Notes: generated by a model from the sequence alone, not told the origin. A DNA stretch of 64,000 bases from an uncultured Oscillospiraceae bacterium (GCA_964518875.1 CAZFHI010000008.1:1929-65928); one strand, 5' to 3'. Numbered from the stretch's first letter, positions 27,010 to 49,241 are shown. Made by a program: numbers and translations.

Positions 27010-27054
27010 TTAATGGTGTGTTAATATGCTTAAGAGTTATTAAGGAGGATTTTA

Positions 27055-39526: not shown

Positions 39527-40210
39527 TCAATATTTAAACTGCTTAAGCCTAATTTTTTGTTTGTCTGTAATCCTCCTGCTTTCAACGGCTTTCTGTATTG
39601 TTTTGTTATGCGTCCACCTATCCAGCTTTCGCTTTTCTATAAACGGGAGCACGGCGTCGTACTGTTTGGCAAGAGCTGTCGCAAAATACCACGCCTTCAT
39701 CATATTTACATAGTATTCTTCCGATCTTATTGACGCCGCCATTTCAGGATACCTGATGTTAAAATCCTCATCAAGGTAATGATCCATAAGCATTTTTACC
39801 GCAAACCTTACAGTATATGCGTCTTTTGACAGTATCCATTTTTCTATATATTTAATAAGCTCTTCTTTATGCTTTTTAAAAGACTTGGGCGACATTTGGT
39901 CGCACGTCGCCCAATTATCTATGTATGGTAAAAAGCGGCAAACTTTTTCTATACAGATATCAAAATTTTTAATTTCTGAAATAATGAATGCATGAAGCTG
40001 GTTTTCTTCAAAATATCTGTGAGGCAGCTTTTGCAAAAAGTCAGCGGCGCCGCCATTATTTAAAAGCTTTTTCGCGTATAGTCTTAGTTCTTTTGTCCTA
40101 ACGCCTATAATCCTGCTTTTGTCTATATTGGGGATCATTTTAATTTCAAAAGCGCGGTACGATTCATCCCGCATTTTAAAAAGCGCGCTTTCTATTTCTG
40201 TGTTTTTCAT
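39527..40210 (-). CDS. DNA alkylation repair protein, AlkD/AlkC-like HEAT-repeat family (PF08713)
   Basis: 227 aa. Helical repeat protein with YIDNWATCDQ and other features that I associate with the DNA alkylation repair enzyme family. 9 nt downstream of the kinase gene. Confidence 0.6.
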   Translation of the reverse strand: MKNTEIESALFKMRDESYRAFEIKMIPNIDKSRIIGVRTKELRLYAKKLLNNGGAADFLQKLPHRYFEENQLHAFIISEIKNFDICIEKVCRFLPYIDNWATCDQMSPKSFKKHKEELIKYIEKWILSKDAYTVRFAVKMLMDHYLDEDFNIRYPEMAASIRSEEYYVNMMKAWYFATALAKQYDAVLPFIEKRKLDRWTHNKTIQKAVESRRITDKQKIRLKQFKY

Positions 40211-40219
40211 TCTATACTG

Positions 40220-41197
40220 TTATTTATCGCCGCGTGAAGCCTTGCTTTGTGTTTCTTTAATAGGAAATTCCATTACAAAGGCTTTGGTATAGGGAGGCTC
40301 CATATGTTCAATATACAGCTTGCCGCCATGTTCATAAGTTATGTCATACGCTATGGACAGCCCAAGGCCGTACCCTCCGCCTTGGCTTCTGCTGTCGTCT
40401 AATTTTGCGAACGGCTTGAATATCTGCGCCTGCTGGTGCGCGGGTATTTCAGGGCCAGAATCCGCCACGTAAATGCGTATTGTTTTTTTTAAGCGCTTTT
40501 CGCATATTTCTGTTTTAACCAGCACTTCGCTGCCCTGAGGGCAATATTTGAGCGTGTTAAGCAGTATGTTTTCAAACGCGCGCTTAAAATGCGTTTCATC
40601 CAGCGAAAGCACTGCGTCATTAGAAAAATCGCATGAAAGGGACATTTTATTTTCTTCAAATTTATAATAATGCTCTGCAACTATGGCGCGCAAAAACGCA
40701 TTTAAATGTATTGGAACAATAAATTTTTTTCTGTCAGCAAGGCTGTTTTTAGCGTAGTCCATCATTTCTTCAAGCATTTTTTCCATATCCGCGGACTTCC
40801 TGTATATGGTTTCAGCGGCCCGTTCGATACCTTCCTCATTTGATATCTTTTTAGTTGCAAGCGCGCGGGAAAAACCCATAATGCTGGTAAGAGGCGTCCT
40901 TATATCATGTCCCATATCCGCCATAAGCTTCATTCGCTCTTTGACTAAAGTGTCGTTATACTGCTTTATGCGTCTTTTCATGCGCCTGGCAAAGCATATT
41001 ATAAACAGAACATGCAGCCCTATATCCGAAAGAAGATATAAAGCTATTTGAATTTGATCAGGATGTCCGCTCGCGTTTTTATCCGTAATCCATATAAAAA
41101 TGCTCTCCGCCAACATTGTAGCAAGCCCCAGCGCCAGCGTGTAAATTATAATGCTTTTTATTAAATAACCGCTCAGGTTTTTTGTGTCCCGTCCCAT
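40220..41197 (-). CDS. Sensor histidine kinase, intramembrane-sensing type (two TM helices with a ~13-aa loop, no obvious HAMP)
   Basis: 325 aa. H-box MGHDIRTPLTSIMGF. N, G1 and G2 blocks (LLNTLKY, DSGPEIP, GGGYGLGLSIA). The two TM helices are separated only by TDKNASGHPDQIQ. Confidence 0.9.
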   Translation of the reverse strand: MGRDTKNLSGYLIKSIIIYTLALGLATMLAESIFIWITDKNASGHPDQIQIALYLLSDIGLHVLFIICFARRMKRRIKQYNDTLVKERMKLMADMGHDIRTPLTSIMGFSRALATKKISNEEGIERAAETIYRKSADMEKMLEEMMDYAKNSLADRKKFIVPIHLNAFLRAIVAEHYYKFEENKMSLSCDFSNDAVLSLDETHFKRAFENILLNTLKYCPQGSEVLVKTEICEKRLKKTIRIYVADSGPEIPAHQQAQIFKPFAKLDDSRSQGGGYGLGLSIAYDITYEHGGKLYIEHMEPPYTKAFVMEFPIKETQSKASRGDK

Positions 41198-41850
41198 TTG
41201 TACCCTATTCCTCTGATAGTTTTTATTTTGTTTTCTCCTACCTTGTTTCTAAGTTTATTTACGCACACCCTTATCGCGTTGTCATTTACGGGGAAGCTTT
41301 CCCCCCAGCCCGCTTCATAGAGCTGTTCAAGGGTAAGCACTCTCCCTCCGCCCTGAATCAGCGCTTCAAGCAGGCGTGTTTCTGTGGCTGTCAATTCCGT
41401 AACACTGTCCCCATTTGTAATAGTGCATGAGGCAGGGTCAAAGCGCACACCGTCAGATACGATCATGCCTCTATACTCAGTCTGCCTATACGCGCGGCGC
41501 AGAAGAGCTTTCGCTCGAAGCAGCAGTTCTTCAGGATCAAACGGCTTGCAAAGATAGTCGTCTGCACCCGACTGAAAGCCCAGCGTCTTATCTTCAAGCA
41601 GCGTTTTAGCCGTTATAACTAGTATAGGCACGGATTTATCCAATCGCCTTATTTCATTCATAAGCTGAAAACCGTTAATGCCCGGCATCATAATATCTAT
41701 TACGGCTAAGGAAATAACGTTGCGCTTAAAGGCGTTCAGGGCTTCATTTCCGTCCTTCGCTGTTATAATACGCCCTAAATCCTTAAGGTACAGGCTGCAA
41801 AGAGAAAGAATATCAGTATCGTCGTCTGCTAAAAGTATGGTGTGCGCCAT
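41173..41850 (-). CDS. OmpR/PhoB-family response regulator
   Basis: 225 aa. Receiver (ILLADDD...VIDIMMPGINGF...ITAKT) and winged-helix output (LTATETRLLEAL...IKTIRGIGYKW). Confidence 0.94.
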   Translation of the reverse strand: MAHTILLADDDTDILSLCSLYLKDLGRIITAKDGNEALNAFKRNVISLAVIDIMMPGINGFQLMNEIRRLDKSVPILVITAKTLLEDKTLGFQSGADDYLCKPFDPEELLLRAKALLRRAYRQTEYRGMIVSDGVRFDPASCTITNGDSVTELTATETRLLEALIQGGGRVLTLEQLYEAGWGESFPVNDNAIRVCVNKLRNKVGENKIKTIRGIGYKWDGTQKT

Positions 41851-41859
41851 AGGTCCTCC

Positions 41860-43752
41860 CTATAAGAAATGGTATTGTCCAAAGCTTGCAAGCAGTATAA
41901 TAAGAAGTACAACAGCGGCCGATCGGCATATAAGCTTTGTTTTAATACGCTTATCACTGTACTTTTTGCTGTCCCGGACAGTTCTGAAAATAATATACAG
42001 CATTATAAGGCAGACCGCAATGCTGGATACCAGAAGGCAAGCCGTAAAGCCGTTTATCGCTTGCTTTGCGGGGCTTTCGTTTTCCGCTATATGATTAAGC
42101 CCGGCAAAATAGGCTGCGCTTATGGCTGCTCCTGAAAGCGTTAAAATAAACGGCGCGATGTCGCGCTTTTTATGGCGTTTTGCGTTAACTACGCGAATTA
42201 TAAGCTGTATAAACGCGGATATTATAAAGCCCGCCATAAGTATTATAAGCGTTAAAGCTAACAATAAAAACACATTGTAATTTTTTACAGGCGTTTTTTC
42301 AATAGGAATAAGCGAGTCGCCGTCTGTCCAGACAGTATCTACAATCCCGTCCCGCGTTTCAAGGTACAGCGTTTCAACCATTTCAGGGTGATTTTCCACA
42401 CGGTAAAAAGAGCCTGTTTCTCTTATTGCTTTAAGGCCCATATCGTCAGCGCCAAAAAAGCCTGCTATACGCATAAGCGCGGAAGTTAAAAACGCGTAAT
42501 CTCCTTCTGTTTTAAGGTGGTACGTGTTCACGTAGCTAAGCAAACTGTAATAAGGGAGGTTAAAAGCGTTGCGGCCTGATACATAGTATCCGCTCTGCGG
42601 CGCCGGCTTAGCGTCTGAAGGCATTTTTATTTTTTTAGATCCGCCCATTAGCAGGCGGTTTAACGAGGCGTTTACAGCGTTTGCGTAGGCGGTATTGCTA
42701 AGCAGCACATATCCTATATTTTGTTCGGGAACAACGCTTATCTGCGCCGTAAAGCCGTTTGTGTTGCCTGGATGCTGGTAGCCTTTCCCATTTTCCGCGT
42801 TCATAGTAAAAAGGCCGTGAGCGACGCCGTCCATTCCTTCAAGCGGCGCAAAGCTGTCTGAAAAAAGCATATCAAAAGTAGCTTGATTTTTAAAAATGCG
42901 CTTATCCCTGTTAAGCAGCGCAACGCCTAATTTCGCCAGGTCCTCCGCGGTTCCCCGAGCGGCGCCTGCAGGAACAAGCGCTACGCGCGACAAGCCCGTA
43001 TTAATAAAGCTCCCTGATTCATCAGGCATACTGCCTTCCGCCATTTTTGCGCTGCTGCCGTTTAATCCTGCCGAAGTCATTTTGAGAGGAACGAAAAAGC
43101 GCTCATTCAAATAATCTGAAAATGTTTTATGTGACACGCATTCCACTATGTATCCCGCTAAAGCGCAGCCGAAGTTTGAGTAAGCGGTTACGGTGCCCGG
43201 ATTAAAGCGCTGCACAGGGCAAGCCTTTATAAGCGCTTCTTTAAGAGGCGCTTCGGGCTCATTTTCTTTAAGTATCATATCAAGCGGAGCTTCCTCAAAC
43301 CCCGCGCGGTGATTCATTAAATCAAGCGTCGTTATCGGCCATTTTAATTTAAGCGCGCTGTAAAAGTCATTCGGAAGATAGTTGGAAATATCTTCATCTA
43401 ATTTAATCTTTCCTTCTTCAGCTAACTGCATAACGGACAGCCATACAAAAGTCTTTGTAACGCTGCCATATTCAAAGCCTGTTTTTTTAGCGTCTATCAG
43501 CCTTTTATTTGCGATGTCTTCCGCGCCAAATCCCTTTGAAAACAGTATTCCGTCATTTGAAAAAACGACTATGGCCGCCCCTAAAAATTCTTTGCCTGCT
43601 TTTTCCTTAAGCAGATTTTCCGCTTTTATCGCAAATTCTTCATTTGAAAGACCCGACGGCGTTTGCGCGTAAGCCATACTGGTCCCCATAGTAAGCACCG
43701 TCGCAAGCATAATGGCGACAGCTCTTAACACTCTTTTTGATGCAAATTTCAT
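41860..43752 (-). CDS. Beta-lactamase/PBP-fold serine hydrolase with four C-terminal transmembrane helices
   Basis: 630 aa. Signal peptide ...MAYAQ. Motifs SVTK (SxxK), YSN (YxN), HPGNTNG (HxG-like). Residues ~495-630 form 4 hydrophobic helices. First gene of the operon with the RR and HK. Confidence 0.75.
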   Translation of the reverse strand: MKFASKRVLRAVAIMLATVLTMGTSMAYAQTPSGLSNEEFAIKAENLLKEKAGKEFLGAAIVVFSNDGILFSKGFGAEDIANKRLIDAKKTGFEYGSVTKTFVWLSVMQLAEEGKIKLDEDISNYLPNDFYSALKLKWPITTLDLMNHRAGFEEAPLDMILKENEPEAPLKEALIKACPVQRFNPGTVTAYSNFGCALAGYIVECVSHKTFSDYLNERFFVPLKMTSAGLNGSSAKMAEGSMPDESGSFINTGLSRVALVPAGAARGTAEDLAKLGVALLNRDKRIFKNQATFDMLFSDSFAPLEGMDGVAHGLFTMNAENGKGYQHPGNTNGFTAQISVVPEQNIGYVLLSNTAYANAVNASLNRLLMGGSKKIKMPSDAKPAPQSGYYVSGRNAFNLPYYSLLSYVNTYHLKTEGDYAFLTSALMRIAGFFGADDMGLKAIRETGSFYRVENHPEMVETLYLETRDGIVDTVWTDGDSLIPIEKTPVKNYNVFLLLALTLIILMAGFIISAFIQLIIRVVNAKRHKKRDIAPFILTLSGAAISAAYFAGLNHIAENESPAKQAINGFTACLLVSSIAVCLIMLYIIFRTVRDSKKYSDKRIKTKLICRSAAVVLLIILLASFGQYHFL

Positions 43753-43817
43753 TACAAGTTCCTCCTGCCGTTTGATTTCGCTAAAAGCATATCACGCCAT
43801 TATTTCTAATCGATACG

Positions 43818-43839
43818 CTGAACATTAACTGAATATTAA
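43818..43839. promoter_or_regulatory. Tandem 11-bp direct repeat, candidate OmpR-type response-regulator binding site
   Basis: CTGAACATTAA CTGAATATTAA (10/11 identical, 11-bp register), 66-87 nt upstream of the hydrolase start codon. Confidence 0.35.
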
Positions 43840-43871: not shown

Positions 43872-43904
43872 TTAAAAAAACGGGGCCGCATTTGCAGTCC
43901 CGTT
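43872..43904 (-). terminator. Terminator of the ABC-2 exporter operon
   Basis: Minus-strand AACGGG-(14 nt)-CCCGUU followed by UUUUUUUAAUU, 12 nt after the permease stop. Confidence 0.5.
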
Positions 43905-43915
43905 CGCGCTGACAA

Positions 43916-45043
43916 TCATATAAACGTTTCAGCATTTTTCCCGCGTCTTAGAGAGAAAGCGCAAAGCGATATGCCTAAGACTATGAAGCCAATAAGCGCA
44001 ATAAAGCTGTCCGTTGTCGTAGAAATAGGTTTGCCGCTTATAAGCGAAAGGATCGCGGTGTTAGCCCAATAGTTAGGCGTAATCATGCCTATATTCTGCA
44101 AAAATTCAGGCATAAGCCATATGGGCCAGAAGCTTCCGCCAAGCATTGCAAATATTAAAGATATTGAGGAAGTAATACCTGAATAAAACCGGCTCGTGTT
44201 AGCGGCTAAGGACATAAAGATGCTGAAAAATATCCAGCATGTGCCGTGTAAAAGCCATAGCAGATATATAGGCCACGCTATATATGTAGGCACTATAAAG
44301 TTAGCGATGATAAAAATAGTAAACATATTAAATATTAATATTATCAGAGCCGTGAAAAACATAGCGTATATATAGTTAATGGACCTGATAGGCGAACACT
44401 TTATGCGGTTAAGCGTGCCGCCCTGCCTTTCAGATATTATAAGACTTCCTATTGAAAACATGCTTACGCTCAATACATAAGTTAAAAAGCCGTTCCCTAA
44501 CTGCAAGCCATTCGATGCATTGCTTCCAGTATTTTTTTCTTCGTACTTGACGCCGCTTGACTGCATTTCATTGTAATAAAGCATAAGCTTCTCCGGGTCA
44601 TCTGTGTTTTTTATTTCTTTCAGCTCAAGCAGCGAATTTATATACATGTTTACCCTGTTTTGCAGCATTGCGACTATCTCCTGCCCCTGCAAAACTCTTA
44701 TGGAAACCTTTGGGTTTTCTCCGTCCATTACGCTTTTTTCAAAGCCTTCAGGTATTATAAGCAAAGCGTCCAGCGAATTTTCCAAAAGCTTGGAGTCAAG
44801 ATTATCTTCTTCGCTCATATCTTTGTATAAAATCGAGCTGCTTTCAGTAGATGAAACGAGATCCTTTGAAAGAATAGTATCGTCCTTATCTACCAGGCCT
44901 ATACGCCATTTAGCTTCGCCGCCCTGAGGGTTGAATACTGTAAGGCTCAGCGCGAGCAACAGCACGGGAAGTATAATCGTTATGAAAAGTCCGCCTTTGC
45001 TGCTTAATATAAGGCGAATATTGTTTTTTACAATCTGAAGCAT
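43916..45043 (-). CDS. ABC-2-type exporter permease (second of two)
   Basis: 375 aa. N-terminal TM helix, large extracytoplasmic loop, five C-terminal TM helices. 1-nt overlap with the preceding permease. Confidence 0.78.
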   Translation of the reverse strand: MLQIVKNNIRLILSSKGGLFITIILPVLLLALSLTVFNPQGGEAKWRIGLVDKDDTILSKDLVSSTESSSILYKDMSEEDNLDSKLLENSLDALLIIPEGFEKSVMDGENPKVSIRVLQGQEIVAMLQNRVNMYINSLLELKEIKNTDDPEKLMLYYNEMQSSGVKYEEKNTGSNASNGLQLGNGFLTYVLSVSMFSIGSLIISERQGGTLNRIKCSPIRSINYIYAMFFTALIILIFNMFTIFIIANFIVPTYIAWPIYLLWLLHGTCWIFFSIFMSLAANTSRFYSGITSSISLIFAMLGGSFWPIWLMPEFLQNIGMITPNYWANTAILSLISGKPISTTTDSFIALIGFIVLGISLCAFSLRRGKNAETFI

Positions 45044-46146
45044 TACCTTTTCCCTCCCTTTTTGGTGTACATAATAAACGACAAAGCTATAAACGCCGCG
45101 CCTAGTATTAAATTTATCGTTACGGATCTAATCAGCATGGAAGAATCCTGCGAATAGATAAAACGCATCAATCCCTGGTTCATCATGCCAACAGGCGTAT
45201 ACGTGGAAATGTTTGTTATTTCATTTGACAGCATGTTTAAAGGCACATAGCCTCCGCCTAAAAACGTAAAAAGTATTACAAGCACATTGAGCGTTCCGTT
45301 TGTGGCCTGAAAGTTTTCACCGCTCGCTTCATACACTAAAAGCCCTAATCCGCAGCTGAACAAGGCAAAAGGTACAAGGCTCAGCATAGATATGAACGCG
45401 TTTCCAAAGTTAGCGGAATAAATAAGAATGTTTGAAAGCATAAGTATTATTACCTGCATTATAAGCACAACAGACGCCGCAAAAACTTTGGCAAAGAAAA
45501 CGCCGTTCATGCTGTACGGGGAGCTTTTAAGCCTTAAAATAGTGTTTTCCTGCTTTTCACGGTTTATTGTTTCCGCCGTCTGTATGGCGCCGTAAAGTAT
45601 TGTCATAGTAATCATTGCGATTGCATAATAATCTATACTTCCGGGGCTTTTGCTTCCGCTGACGTTTTCCACGTCAACATAGTTATTTCTTTCAGGTTTT
45701 GCAAAAGCTTTTGAAAGCTTTCCGCTTTTAACAGCCTCGTTTACAAGGTTTGACTGTTTAGCAAAAGAATCCGAATATATCCTTAGTATTAAGCTGTCCA
45801 GATCCGAATATACGTCTGAATACATTGTAATTTTATCGTTGTCTATTTCAACATATTTTTTCACCTCATTATTGTCCAACTTTTCCTGCAGATCATCTTT
45901 TGAGATTCTTTCAAATATGATGCCGGCGTTTTTCCCTTCTTTAATGTAAAGGTCTTCCATCAAGCCGTTTGACGCTATAACCGGCACGTTTATCTGCGGC
46001 ATTTCGTAGGTGTTTTTAAAGCCCTGATTCAGCGCCGTTCCTAAAACCCAGGTGATTATAAAAGGAAAAAGTATCATCATGGTAAACGTCGTAGGATCGT
46101 TTATGAGGTGCAACATTTCTTTTTTTACAAGCTTAAAAAATCTCAT
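45043..46146 (-). CDS. ABC-2-type exporter permease (first of two)
   Basis: 367 aa with the same topology as its neighbour. The two are paralogous but not identical. Confidence 0.78.
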   Translation of the reverse strand: MRFFKLVKKEMLHLINDPTTFTMMILFPFIITWVLGTALNQGFKNTYEMPQINVPVIASNGLMEDLYIKEGKNAGIIFERISKDDLQEKLDNNEVKKYVEIDNDKITMYSDVYSDLDSLILRIYSDSFAKQSNLVNEAVKSGKLSKAFAKPERNNYVDVENVSGSKSPGSIDYYAIAMITMTILYGAIQTAETINREKQENTILRLKSSPYSMNGVFFAKVFAASVVLIMQVIILMLSNILIYSANFGNAFISMLSLVPFALFSCGLGLLVYEASGENFQATNGTLNVLVILFTFLGGGYVPLNMLSNEITNISTYTPVGMMNQGLMRFIYSQDSSMLIRSVTINLILGAAFIALSFIMYTKKGGKR

Positions 46147-46158
46147 GGTATTTTCCTT

Positions 46159-47082
46159 TCAGTCACGCAGGCGTTTGCCTGTAAGCGTCAGGAAAACGTC
46201 CTCAAGATCCGGCTCGCTTATAGACATATCTATAATTTCAACATGATGCGTTATAAGAGTGTCTAATATTTCCTTTAACTGGTTTTCCTTAAGCCTGCAC
46301 GAAAAACGGTAGTCGTAGTCCCTTATGTCTATATTTTCAACGCCTTTTATTAAACGAAGCTCCTCAACAGGCACATCGCCTTTTAAGCGCATGGTTATAA
46401 ACCAGTTTTCATCTATAAGCTGCCTTAACTCCTGCAGCGTGCCCTGGGCGACAATCTGCCCCATATCCATAATGGCTACGCGCTGGCAAAGCTGCTCCGC
46501 TTCCTCCATATAGTGCGTAGTGTAAAGTATAGTCATGCCTTCTGATTTTAATCGCATTATGTATTCCATAATGTAATTCCTGCTCTGAGGGTCTATGCCG
46601 ACCGTGGGTTCATCGAGTATAAGCAGCCTGGGCCTGTGCACAAGGCCGCAGGCTATGTTCAAGCGTCTTTTCATGCCGCCTGAAAATGTTTTGGCCTTGT
46701 CTTTTCTTCTTTCGTACAGGCCTACGTAGTTAAGCGTTTCTTTGGTCTGGTTCTGCAACTCCTTGCCGGATAAGCCATACAGCGAACCAAAAAATGAAAC
46801 GTTTTGTTCAGCTGTAAGGTCGTTATAAATAGCTAATTCCTGCGGCACAATGCCGAGCATGCTTTTACACTCGTTCAGGTTTTTATCCATATTTTTGCCT
46901 TCGATAAAAACATCTCCGGAATTTTTCTTTATAATTCCGCTTATAATGTTTATAGTCGTGCTTTTTCCGGCGCCGTTTGGACCTAAAAGCCCAAACACCT
47001 CTCCCGTATGAATTTCAAAGCTTATCTCGCTTACCGCAAGCACTTTACCATATCTCTTTACAAGTTTTTCAGCTTTAAGCAT
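46159..47082 (-). CDS. ABC exporter ATP-binding protein (DrrA/NatA-like)
   Basis: ATG at 47082 ([13 protein letters not shown]) with RBS AGGAGGA; the ORF track extends to 47223. Walker [10 protein letters not shown], signature FSGGMKRRL, Walker [12 protein letters not shown]. Confidence 0.92.
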
Positions 47083-47169
47083 AACATCCTCCTGTTTTGC
47101 AGATAGTTCACCTGTACGATGAAGCGTATTAAGTTTAACATGCGCGCATTCATTCTGACAGTAAAAAAG

Positions 47170-47200
47170 GTCATAATTTAAAATGACTTTAGTCATAATT
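47170..47200. promoter_or_regulatory. Repeated motif and palindrome upstream of the ABC exporter operon (candidate NarL-type regulator site)
   Basis: GTCATAATT at 47170-47178 and again at 47192-47200 (22-nt register). Palindrome ATGACTTTAGTCAT at 47183-47196. 88-118 nt upstream of the ATPase start. Confidence 0.3.
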
Positions 47201-47259
47201 ATTTTCATAGTTGAAGTAAGCAAAAAATACAGCTATAATCCTAAAAAAAGGAGGTTAGT

Positions 47260-47643
47260 ATGCAGGAAACAATATTATGCTACAACTTAAACGAAAAAAG
47301 AAAGGCGGAAATAGAGAAGCTTGCAAAAGCGCTTGATATAGTAATAAAGCATATAAAAAAAGATGATTTTGCTCTGCCTCTGGGCGTTCTGTGCGGCTTA
47401 GAAGAAAACAACAGCAAAAAAAGCTCAAATGAGAGCTTTGAAGATGAAATGATGGTGCTTTGTTTTTTTAACGACGACAAATTCGGCGCTTTCCTTGCGT
47501 CTTTTAAACAGAATAATATAAAACCCGTTGCGCTTAAAGCGGTTTTAACGCCAAACAACGCTAAGTGGAGCAGCTTAACGCTTCACAAAAACCTGTTAGA
47601 AGAGCATATGTATTTTATGAATCAAAGAAAAAAGCAATTATAG
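47260..47643 (+). CDS. Small cytoplasmic protein, DUF3783-like
   Basis: 127 aa. RBS AAGGAGG. MQETILCYNLNEKRKAEIEKLAKALDI... and ...MMVLCFFNDDKFGAFL resemble DUF3783 as I remember it. The 3' end overlaps the convergent response regulator gene by 6 nt. Confidence 0.45.
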   Translation: MQETILCYNLNEKRKAEIEKLAKALDIVIKHIKKDDFALPLGVLCGLEENNSKKSSNESFEDEMMVLCFFNDDKFGAFLASFKQNNIKPVALKAVLTPNNAKWSSLTLHKNLLEEHMYFMNQRKKQL

Positions 47644-48243
47644 CTCTCCCTTTAAGCGGCTTATAGCGATCTGCGTGCGATGATCAAGCCCGCTTTTCTG
47701 AAGAATAGAAGTTACATGGTTTTTTACCGTTCCTTCAGACAGAAAAAGCGTTTCCGCTATCTGACGGTTGCTCAGTCCCTTGGCTATTAAAGCCACTATA
47801 TCTTCCTCCCTGTCGCTAAGCTGCGCAAGTGTTTTGCGGCTTTTAGGTATGTTTTCCCTTACGGCTTTCATAACTACCGCGTCGTAAACGTTTTTGCCTT
47901 TATATATTTCTATTATAGCGTTTATAATTGATTCGGGCGTTGCGGATTTAAGCAGATAGCCGTGCGCGCCCAAGCTCAGCGACTGGAGTATTTCAGTCTG
48001 CTCATCAAACGTTGTAAGCACAAGCACCCTTGTGTTTTTTAAAATTTCAGGAAGAGCTTCAAGCCCGGATTTATCTGGCATGCGAAGGTCAAGTAGCAAT
48101 ACATCGCACATTTTGCTAAGCTTTATCGCTTCATACCCGTCTTTCGCCGTACCTATAACCTTAATATCCTCTTTGCCGTCTATAAGAATAGATAAAGATT
48201 CCCTAATCAAAGCGTCGTCGTCCGCTATGGCTACTTTTATCAT
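47638..48243 (-). CDS. NarL/LuxR-family response regulator
   Basis: 201 aa. Receiver (KVAIADDD...LLDLRMPDKSG...LTTF) and LuxR HTH (LSDREEDIVALIAKGLSNRQIAETLFLSEGTVKNHVTSIL). Confidence 0.94.
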   Translation of the reverse strand: MIKVAIADDDALIRESLSILIDGKEDIKVIGTAKDGYEAIKLSKMCDVLLLDLRMPDKSGLEALPEILKNTRVLVLTTFDEQTEILQSLSLGAHGYLLKSATPESIINAIIEIYKGKNVYDAVVMKAVRENIPKSRKTLAQLSDREEDIVALIAKGLSNRQIAETLFLSEGTVKNHVTSILQKSGLDHRTQIAISRLKGEL

Positions 48244-49241
48244 GTCTTCCTCCTTGGAATAATGGAAATTACCGTTGTGCCCTGTCCCCTGCTTCCGCGC
48301 ACTATAAGCGTTCCGCCAAGGGCAGATACTCTGCTGCGCATTCCGGATATGCCCATGCCTTCGCTGTAATTGTCAGAGCCTGCGCCGTTATCCTTTACTT
48401 CAAGGCGCACAACGCCCGGCAGAACCTGTATGCATACCTTAACCTGCGTTGCGTGGGAATGCCTAATCACGTTGGACAACGCTTCATGCAGGTTTCCACG
48501 CAATGCTTCCCAGATATCCATTCTTACTTTCTCAGCATCGCCCTGAAGGCTGTATATTATCTGCATGCCGCTGTCGCGCCTGAATCTGTCTATGACCGCC
48601 TGCATGTCCCGCGTGCGCATATCAGGAACCTCGGCCCGCATTTTGTGAACAGCCGAACGTATATTGTCTACGCCCGCGCGCATGGAATCTGCCGCCTGGC
48701 TGAGCAAGGCTTTTGATTTTTCAGGCTCTTTATCCATTATTGACTTAGCCGCTTCCACCTGCAGAATGCTTGCAGTAACGGAGTGCCCTAATAGATCGTG
48801 TATTTCCTGCGCAATGCGCTGTCTCTCCCTAAGCTGTGAGTTTATTGTTATCTGGCTTTCGTATTTATCCTGCAAAAGCCTGTATAGCCTGACCTGCTGC
48901 GCTTCAAGCTTTAGACTGGTGTTTTCTTCTGTAAGGGATTTTATTTTTTTCTCCTGCAGCGAAAGATAATAATACAGCACCGCATAAAACGCGTACAAGA
49001 GTATAAGCAAAAAAGGCACATAATCCCAAAGGAAAAAAAGAAGCAAAGCGTTGCCTATGGAAAACGCATCGTGTATGGCAAGGGATAAAGCGCGAAGATC
49101 TATAAAAAAAAGCAGAAGCAAAAAAACATGGCTTATGCTTTCCGGCGCCACGAAAAAACACGCTATGGCATAGCTTGTTACAATTACAAAGTCGCAGAAG
49201 AGAAGAAATTTTTTAATAATATCAACTCCCGTGAATTCCAT
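48240..49241 (-). CDS. Sensor histidine kinase, HisKA_3 (NarX/LiaS/LnrJ-like) with an N-terminal membrane domain
   Basis: 333 aa. H-box RIAQEIHDLLGHSVTA, HATPase_c (VKDNGAGS, GMGISGMRSRV). 3-4 N-terminal TM helices with minimal loops. The start codon directly follows a short hairpin plus U-run (49248-49268) and has no obvious RBS, so the start is uncertain. Confidence 0.85.
   Translation of the reverse strand: MEFTGVDIIKKFLLFCDFVIVTSYAIACFFVAPESISHVFLLLLFFIDLRALSLAIHDAFSIGNALLLFFLWDYVPFLLILLYAFYAVLYYYLSLQEKKIKSLTEENTSLKLEAQQVRLYRLLQDKYESQITINSQLRERQRIAQEIHDLLGHSVTASILQVEAAKSIMDKEPEKSKALLSQAADSMRAGVDNIRSAVHKMRAEVPDMRTRDMQAVIDRFRRDSGMQIIYSLQGDAEKVRMDIWEALRGNLHEALSNVIRHSHATQVKVCIQVLPGVVRLEVKDNGAGSDNYSEGMGISGMRSRVSALGGTLIVRGSRGQGTTVISIIPRRKT

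Follow-up and report, generated by a model that had tools for sequence, protein, structure and literature searches.

The window analyzed here is a 64,000-nucleotide stretch of DNA from an uncultured Oscillospiraceae bacterium (GCA_964518875.1, CAZFHI010000008.1:1929-65928), whose source is a bioreactor metagenome; positions are counted from its first letter. On its minus strand, between a terminator and a convergent gene, lie four co-oriented genes, the first three of which encode an exported, membrane-anchored serine hydrolase of family S12, an OmpR-type response regulator and a short histidine kinase of the intramembrane-sensing type; this trio is conserved in many anaerobes and has so far been uncharacterized. 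The strongest result of our analysis is that, judged by promoter elements and gene order, the hydrolase appears to be a dedicated, activator-dependent output of this two-component lineage, and that in the lineage of the window the two-component system appears to activate itself as well. With moderate confidence we interpret the trio as a self-activating (autoregulated) envelope-defense module in which the hydrolase is the effector. The elements of the module are as follows.

43902..43874, minus strand: intrinsic terminator of the upstream ABC-2 exporter operon, a hairpin with U7, forming the 5' boundary of the module
43818..43839, minus strand: tandem 11-base-pair (bp) direct repeat, predicted binding site of the operon's own OmpR-type regulator
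43786..43791, minus strand: -10-like hexamer TATGCT, 26 nucleotides (nt) 3' of the repeat box, predicted promoter
41860..43752, minus strand: S12/PF00144 serine hydrolase of 630 amino acids (aa), exported and membrane-anchored (Pfam, motifs, hydropathy, AlphaFold2 and Foldseek)
41173..41850, minus strand: OmpR/PhoB-family response regulator, 225 aa (REC and Trans_reg_C domains)
40220..41197, minus strand: intramembrane-type histidine kinase, 325 aa (HisKA and HATPase_c domains, hydropathy and AlphaFold2)

The control region of the trio carries the main result. The terminator has a predicted RNA folding energy of -23.9 kcal/mol (z = -3.42; 0 of 200 shuffles fold equally well) and ends the upstream ABC-2 operon; the trio therefore has its own promoter. 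This promoter lacks a -35 consensus and so looks activator-dependent. Tandem direct repeats one helical turn apart that replace the -35 element are the classical geometry of OmpR/PhoB activators, and the box in the window reads TTAATATTCAG TTAATGTTCAG at 43839..43818, with the consensus TTAATnnTCAG in two copies. Alignment of 12 module promoters (the window, L001, L003, L006, L010, L062, L081, L090, L092, L094, L096 and the exception, L052) revealed the layout [TTAATnnTCAG][TTAATnnTCnn], 26 nt and a TATnCT-like hexamer in 11 of them, with TATTCT, TACACT, TATGCT, TATCCT, TATAAT, TAAGAT or TATACT at the -10 position. The exception, L052, has a degenerate box, ATAAGCTTCCG TTAAGCTTCAT, and AGGCTC at the -10 position, with no such hexamer. 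When 2.13 Mb of locus sequence was scanned on both strands, 13 matches to the box scored at least 13 of 14, and all but one of these (12/13) were at module promoters. In L090, L092 and L094 the box precedes an ABC ATPase gene that heads a longer operon. Given this distribution, the operon's own regulator is the likely ligand of the box at 43818..43839. A search for RNA-seq runs containing the sequence of the window returned none.

The sister lineage of these modules places a similar element in front of the hydrolase gene itself. The regulators of all short-kinase modules form one clade (Shimodaira-Hasegawa-like approximate likelihood-ratio support, SH-aLRT, 95), and the sister of this clade is formed by the regulators of modules with long kinases (L007, L022, L031 and L038). 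The long kinases have 471-484 aa (359 aa in L031, which contains a masked stretch), with two transmembrane (TM) helices about 120 residues apart, a histidine at approximately 256-264 and an outer domain without a Pfam match. Directly upstream of the hydrolase gene in this lineage is a related tandem box, two copies of TTTAAGGTnnn with an 11-bp period, with a -10 element approximately 27 nt downstream; it occupies the gap between the kinase and hydrolase genes in L007, L022 and L031, where the order is regulator-kinase-hydrolase, and stands upstream of the hydrolase in L038. The conservation of the box before the operon, together with its position directly before the hydrolase gene in the sister lineage, argues that the hydrolase is the regulated output.

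While the regulators form one clade, the hydrolases of the short-kinase modules fall into at least four well-supported positions in their own tree, interleaved with hydrolases that have no linked two-component system. Forcing the linked hydrolases into a monophyletic group, which was named after the tree had been seen, costs 278 log-likelihood units (p = 2.5e-7 in the approximately unbiased test, p-AU). A single regulator clade paired with scattered hydrolases therefore indicates a long-standing association of the two-component lineage with the hydrolase family, in which the pair was either lost by many hydrolase lineages or moved between paralogues.

Two further observations concern the box and its promoters. 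The only other exact TTAAT-N6-TTAAT in the window, at 27010-27025 on the plus strand, lies 45 nt before 27055, the first gene of an envelope-glycosylation cluster; it was rejected as a candidate site, being statistically insignificant (0.71 occurrences expected, at least two found in 21 of 100 shuffles) and too near the start codon for an activator site. In the Treponema-labelled modules (L090:927-1000, L092:217-290 and L094:1023-1100) the TATACT hexamer is only about 6 nt before the annotated ATPase ATG, so that the transcript would be leaderless or nearly so, or else the true start codon lies further downstream.

The order hydrolase-regulator-short kinase is found in at least 10 distinct modules with unrelated flanks (the window, L001, L003, L006, L010, L052, L081, L090/L094 and L092, with L062 running to the contig end), and because it is conserved in so many unrelated contexts it is not a product of chance. 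Eight full-length homologues of the hydrolase, 44-55% identical, span at least three genomic contexts (L001/L003-L005; L006; L010), and all of those with enough flanking sequence have a regulator and a short kinase directly downstream. Beyond the clade of the window, the next-closest kinases have 311-320 aa and are 29-32% identical over the alignment. Three of the four that were checked (P0062, P0065 and P0066, the last with a Treponema label in one source) have the gene of such a hydrolase ahead of them, the full arrangement being ABC ATPase, six-TM permease, PF00144 hydrolase of 600-617 aa, regulator, kinase and secreted proteins; P0063 (L096) has the box, regulator, kinase and downstream secreted proteins with no adjacent hydrolase. 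About 10 of 11 distinct short-kinase modules have an adjacent hydrolase.

A wider survey, in which species-representative genomes were scanned and 78 loci of the hydrolase family sampled, showed that proteins combining an S12 domain, a barrel and three or four TM helices (approximately 585-680 aa) are widespread in Bacillota and occur also in Chloroflexota. Their hosts in Bacillota include Bacillaceae, Paenibacillaceae, Lachnospiraceae, Oscillospiraceae, Tissierellia and Streptococcus sanguinis; outside this survey, the family was also seen in a Treponema-labelled metagenome module. A two-component system is adjacent at 10 of the 78 loci; L052, L062 and L081 from this survey have the hydrolase-regulator-short kinase order, and L038 has the same order with a kinase of 484 aa. 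A metagenome scan with the C-terminal kinase pattern P[PDN]YTKAFV returned four loci, namely two L003-type modules, L096, which has no adjacent hydrolase, and L099, with a more distant kinase.

Several loci in these surveys depart from the common pattern. In S. sanguinis (L025-L029, L047 and L074) the hydrolase family forms tandem arrays of up to five paralogues within 13 kb, one copy of which adjoins a divergent and unrelated pair of a regulator and a single-TM kinase. L099:2130-5075 encodes a DUF975 membrane protein, a regulator and a 360-aa kinase that shares the C-terminal YTKAFV, the same layout with another membrane protein in first place. P0060 (347 aa, on a 1983-nt contig), in which residues 1 to ~158 of a hydrolase are joined in frame to the C-terminal half of a kinase, was considered as a kinase-hydrolase fusion and rejected; it most likely arose from an L001-like module, either by deletion or through chimeric assembly. 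Two conserved secreted or lipoprotein-like proteins without a Pfam match follow the kinase in Treponema-labelled modules (L090:5939-7265 and L092:5334-6740), and at least one homologous-looking open reading frame of 290 aa is kept in L096 (5564-6436) though the hydrolase is absent; these proteins are candidates for further partners of the kinase.

The hydrolase matches PF00144 over residues 52-367 (169.7 bits against a cutoff of 27), its sole Pfam match. A cleavable signal peptide (residues 1-29, cut between AYA and Q) is followed by the S12 motifs in their proper order: S97-V-T-K100, Y191-S-N193 and H327-P-G-N-T-N-G. The third of these is of the HxG type (HPG), as in R61 and the D-aminopeptidases, and replaces KTG. 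S97, K100, Y191, N193, H327 and G329 are invariant across 56 family members, linked or unlinked, which argues that the protein is an active enzyme; to judge from these residues, the hydrolase would be an enzyme first. By score, motif order and fold it belongs to PF00144 and MEROPS family S12. Among NCBIfam models it scored 68.5 bits for class C beta-lactamase (cutoff 415), 54.6 for AmpH (cutoff 266) and 43.5 for PBP4B (cutoff 385), and it is a member of none of these three families.

An AlphaFold2 model of the hydrolase, built from a 56-sequence alignment (predicted local distance difference test, pLDDT, 94.2; predicted TM-score, pTM, 0.91), consists of a catalytic beta-lactamase-fold domain (~35-368), a beta-rich lipocalin-like domain (~385-488) and a four-helix TM bundle (492-625) with long helices at 492-526, 532-557, 563-593 and 601-623. 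Hydropathy places the hydrophobic helices at 494-512, 532-550, 571-589 and 607-625, and the loops after helices 1 and 3 are rich in Lys and Arg; the catalytic domain and the C-terminus therefore lie outside the cell. Foldseek comparison of the model with the PDB gave as the best matches Pab87, esterase IS11, Flp (FmtA-like), Lip3 (9sn1), SurE, the R61 DD-peptidase, Ulm16, dHy1, ClbP (whose PDB entries 7MDE and 7MDF are among the matches) and a D-aminopeptidase; the Foldseek probability was 1.00 for R61, ClbP, Flp and AmpC-type structures. The structural matches are all 16-23% identical to the hydrolase, in agreement with the sequence searches, and several of them also have a C-terminal barrel. 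The TM bundle aligned with none of the Foldseek PDB matches, the TM domain of ClbP included; full-length ClbP aligned over the catalytic domain only (~363 columns, TM-score on query 0.46). Searching PDB sequences with the C-terminal 265 residues gave no meaningful match, and phmmer with the C-terminal 260 residues against 1.84 billion representatives returned only the 50% cluster of the window's own protein and a spurious zinc-ribbon membrane protein. The barrel and TM part are too divergent for single-sequence searches.

The kinase has only the Pfam domains HisKA (PF00512, residues 88-150) and HATPase_c (200-313), with His97, the N box and the G boxes present. Its TM helices lie at approximately 12-34 and 51-69. 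In the AlphaFold2 model (pLDDT 80) a helix of residues 4-40 is followed by a 7-residue turn and an unbroken helix of residues 48-114, which runs from TM2 through His97 into the dimerization and histidine-phosphotransfer (DHp) domain and leaves no room for a HAMP or PAS domain. The C-terminus, PPYTKAFVME, is specific to the family according to the family alignment. Intramembrane-sensing kinases in the definition of Mascher have two N-terminal TM helices, an outer linker shorter than about 25 residues and no other input domain, and the kinase conforms to it. The regulator combines a REC domain (PF00072, 88.7 bits) that retains the phosphotransfer residues D9/D10, D52 and K102 with a Trans_reg_C domain (PF00486, 69.5 bits); with a phospho-acceptor Asp and a winged helix of this kind it is a member of the OmpR/PhoB family. 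The top NCBIfam models for the regulator and kinase are VanR/CseB and VanS, far below their cutoffs (146.9 bits against 350 for VanR, 120.3 against 400 for VanS). The pair belongs neither to VanRS nor to LiaS/VraS.

The hydrolase stop and the regulator ATG are separated by 9 nt, with a ribosome-binding site, GGGAGG, 5 nt before the ATG; the regulator gene is translationally coupled to the hydrolase gene. The regulator and kinase genes overlap by 25 nt. A preliminary description of this DNA had reported an exported 630-aa protein with SVTK, YSN and HPGNTNG motifs and four C-terminal TM helices, encoded in one operon with an OmpR-type regulator and a kinase that lacks a recognizable sensor domain and has an outer loop of 13 residues. 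All of these features were found where it had placed them. The loop is indeed very short, its exact length being 7-16 residues depending on the method.

In the explanation that we favor, the kinase, which has no input domain, would phosphorylate the OmpR-type regulator, and the regulator would then bind the tandem 11-bp box standing in for the -35 element and turn the operon on. The hydrolase would be its first and main product; kept on the outside of the membrane by its four-helix bundle, it would cleave, at the membrane surface, a peptide or ester that contains D-amino acids. The kinase may perceive its signal directly in the membrane or through the hydrolase. The HxG motif, the barrel and the structural neighbors point to the chemistry of a D-amino-acid-specific peptidase or esterase. 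By analogy with ClbP, whose TM helices accommodate the acyl chain of its substrate, anchoring by a TM bundle suggests that the substrate is located at the membrane or within it. We consider a membrane-active non-ribosomal or lipopeptide antibiotic the most likely substrate, with the cell's own wall or the D-Ala of its teichoic acids as the alternative. Precedents exist for S12 peptidases that act on lipopeptides: BogQ and TriF mediate resistance to D-amino-acid-containing antibiotics (PMC8127968), and the DL-peptidase Lip3 and Lip7, both of which share the fold, are lipopeptide-induced (PMC12903863).

The neighboring genes favor defense over housekeeping turnover of the wall, though not decisively. 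An ABC ATPase and a six-TM permease are co-operonic in L090-L094 (the permeases of L090 and L092 have 244-250 aa) and divergent in L001 and L003, and an ABC-2 exporter adjoins the trio in the window. In L081 the kinase is followed by a gene of the Rce1-like immunity type, and the unlinked hydrolase of L069 has TetR and GNAT genes around it. Three points weigh against the defense interpretation. The accompanying ABC genes differ in type and position between modules and are missing from L006, L010 and L052; the choice between an antibiotic and the cell's own wall as the substrate is a guess, the solved relatives being only ~17-23% identical; and a kinase with a loop of 7-16 residues and no input domain needs a signal source that lies outside this explanation.

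One such source may be the hydrolase itself. The preliminary description had viewed the locus as a sensing module, with the hydrolase as sensor or co-sensor. It had proposed a survey of synteny and regarded a lack of conserved linkage in other genomes as evidence against the idea; the linkage proved to be conserved, and the kinase is without an input domain. The relation that is directly shown differs from the one proposed, in that the hydrolase is the regulated output. Being the target of the system is compatible with being its co-sensor, because BceAB is both target and sensor (bioRxiv 10.1101/2020.02.28.969956). We tentatively entertain the possibility that the hydrolase is the input device of the kinase as well as its target, with substrate binding, acylation or turnover outside the cell relayed via the four-helix bundle to the two-helix hairpin of the kinase. 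Consistent with this, TM2 of the kinase runs on into the DHp helix without a break. No membrane protein other than the hydrolase is common to the modules, the hydrolase gene comes immediately before those of the regulator and kinase in the manner of liaF and vraT, and the short-kinase lineage is almost never found without such a hydrolase. The sister kinases have an outer domain, the loss of which would need a replacement signal source. In two clades linked purely to short kinases the ratio of TM to catalytic-domain identity is 0.71 and 0.80, compared with 0.51-0.61 in unlinked clades and 0.44 in the long-kinase clade. Precedents exist in PbpP, a sensor with a penicillin-binding protein (PBP) fold (PMC8092216), and in BceS-BceAB, where a transporter drives the kinase (bioRxiv 10.1101/2020.02.28.969956).

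Other observations speak against such a relay. The TM-conservation signal rests on two clades, and the TM domains of L062/L081 and of the unlinked L069/L054 are equally similar (0.41-0.53), with no residues specific to linked proteins. Most family loci have no adjacent two-component system, the linked hydrolases are scattered among unlinked ones with their monophyly rejected for a group that was defined post hoc, and L096 retains the box, regulator and kinase without an adjacent hydrolase. Some kinases of the intramembrane type may also sense ligands directly, as proposed for VraS (bioRxiv 10.1101/2025.01.23.634444). If the hydrolase does act as an enzyme-coupled input device, which we regard as possible but doubtful, active-site occupancy or turnover would be passed through the bundle to a kinase that lost its sensor domain, and the cell would measure its need for the enzyme. 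This would be flux-type sensing as in BceAB-BceS, but with a hydrolase of the penicillin-binding fold, and a two-component system would for the first time have been shown to rely on an enzyme of this kind for sensing.

A role in remodeling the cell's own wall, rather unlikely in our judgment, would make the hydrolase a DD-carboxypeptidase, an endopeptidase or a D-Ala esterase whose targets are peptidoglycan, lipid II or teichoic acids. The two-component system would then be a generic sensor of envelope stress through which wall chemistry is adjusted, much like VanRS/VanY and DdcRS/DdcY. The HxG and YSN motifs are those of DD-peptidases of the R61 type; the best sequence and fold matches include R61, Flp (FmtA-like), AmpH and alkaline D-peptidase; the membrane anchor puts the active site near lipid-linked precursors; and VanR/CseB and VanS are the top models for the pair, albeit far below cutoff. 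The AmpH and PBP4B scores given above are nevertheless low, and genes for peptidoglycan synthesis or dlt genes are not consistently nearby, the recurrent neighbors being exporters and genes of immunity or drug modification. The S. sanguinis arrays of up to five paralogues, too, fit diversified substrates such as antibiotics better than a single housekeeping reaction on the wall.

It is improbable that the hydrolase serves as a membrane-bound, inducible beta-lactamase or as a penicillin trap under the control of a beta-lactam-responsive pair. The fold and motifs would permit acylation by beta-lactams, as in R61, and there are weak matches to class C enzymes; however, the class C score is far below the cutoff, HPG takes the place of KTG, the closest solved relatives are peptidases and esterases, and Lip3 and Lip7, of the same fold, were reported to be without beta-lactamase activity (PMC12903863). 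That three functionally unrelated genes became neighbors fortuitously is scarcely credible, for although most family members have no neighboring two-component system, this notion is already contradicted by the recurrence of the same order, translational coupling and promoter box across several lineages with unrelated flanks.

Literature searches found no characterized system that joins an intramembrane-type kinase to a PBP-fold or serine hydrolase, and the preliminary description, too, knew of none of this composition. In its working the trio comes closest to the envelope-stress and detoxification modules of the Bce and Lia types, yet it is a member of neither. With BceRS-BceAB of Bacillus subtilis it shares a two-TM kinase with a minimal outer loop and no input domain, an OmpR-type regulator and an induced membrane protein that would be the resistance effector (in Bce also the supplier of the signal), with an exporter often nearby. 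It differs in that the partner is a four-TM S12 hydrolase, where Bce has a ten-TM BceB-type permease with a large outer domain, and in that the hydrolase shares an autoregulated operon with the regulator and kinase. It also falls outside the BceS-like subgroup: the neighboring transporter is of the ABC-2 type (PF12698) and lies behind its own terminator, and the co-operonic permeases elsewhere are six-TM and not FtsX-type ten-TM proteins. LiaFSR and VraTSR likewise have the gene for a membrane protein directly upstream of the pair in an autoregulated operon, and a kinase of the intramembrane type, but they combine HisKA_3 and NarL-type proteins with a non-enzymatic accessory protein, whereas here HisKA and an OmpR-type regulator (Trans_reg_C) are combined with an intact enzyme from a family that mostly occurs without a two-component system.

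The likeness to BlaR1/MecR1 noted in the preliminary description holds as a concept and not as an architecture. As in these proteins and in PbpP-RsiP-sigma-P (PMC8092216), a PBP-fold outer domain could report a ligand to a cytoplasmic transcription switch. BlaR1, however, has a C-terminal class-D-like domain fused to an N-terminal multi-TM M56 zinc protease and cleaves a repressor, and PbpP acts on an anti-sigma factor; the hydrolase has no Pfam protease domain (M56 or otherwise) and no class-D-like sensor domain, is of the S12 fold with C-terminal TM helices, and is paired with a two-component system in place of a BlaI-type repressor. In VanRS/VanY and DdcRS/DdcY a two-component system has among its outputs a D-Ala-specific peptidase, by which the envelope is altered. 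Unlike the S12 hydrolase, both VanY and DdcY are zinc metallopeptidases, and the VanS and VanR equivalog scores of the pair are below the cutoffs.

Among the enzymes, ClbP, BogQ/TriF and Lip3/Lip7 have the same S12 catalytic fold and motifs, the BogQ/TriF class being one defined by activity, and ClbP also has a C-terminal TM anchor; none has been described with a dedicated two-component system, and identity to the hydrolase is ~17-23%. ClbP has three TM helices, no beta-barrel, an acyl-chain site and a place in a non-ribosomal peptide synthetase (NRPS)/polyketide synthase (PKS) cluster, in contrast to the four TM helices and barrel of the hydrolase; there is no NRPS or PKS gene in the 34.7-49.2 kb section of the window. 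Pab87, SurE and the D-aminopeptidase DAP, among the top fold matches, share the succession of an S12 domain and a lipocalin-like C-terminal barrel, but they are soluble, with no TM bundle and no regulatory partners.

To our knowledge, intramembrane ("sensor-less") kinases are a standing puzzle, the signal source being unknown for most of them. As a test case the present module is compact and conserved over several lineages, with a single candidate partner for the kinase and a promoter element that is clearly defined. The analysis also draws attention to a large family of membrane-anchored S12 hydrolases in Bacillota, so far unstudied. Relatives of the S12 fold destroy or remodel peptide antibiotics that contain D-amino acids, and an inducible membrane-anchored version would be a new type of antibiotic-defense determinant in anaerobic communities.

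The fourth co-oriented gene of the window follows the kinase.

39527..40210, minus strand: AlkD-like DNA-alkylation-repair gene (PF08713, 54.9 bits), 9 nt past the kinase stop

No clear ribosome-binding site stands in front of this gene, and it was not found behind the kinase in any of the homologous modules, where the gene 3' of the kinase varies: DUF1576 in L001 and L003, a convergent gene in L006, and a gap followed by DUF5060 in L010. It is probably a lineage-specific passenger outside the conserved module, and possibly a lineage-specific fourth cistron. On the other side of the trio, directly upstream at 43916-49241 on the minus strand, lies the ABC-2 exporter, made up of an ATPase and two permeases and accompanied by a NarL-type regulator and a kinase of its own, so that two signaling modules of the envelope type, the hydrolase trio and the exporter with its NarL-type pair, stand side by side in the window.

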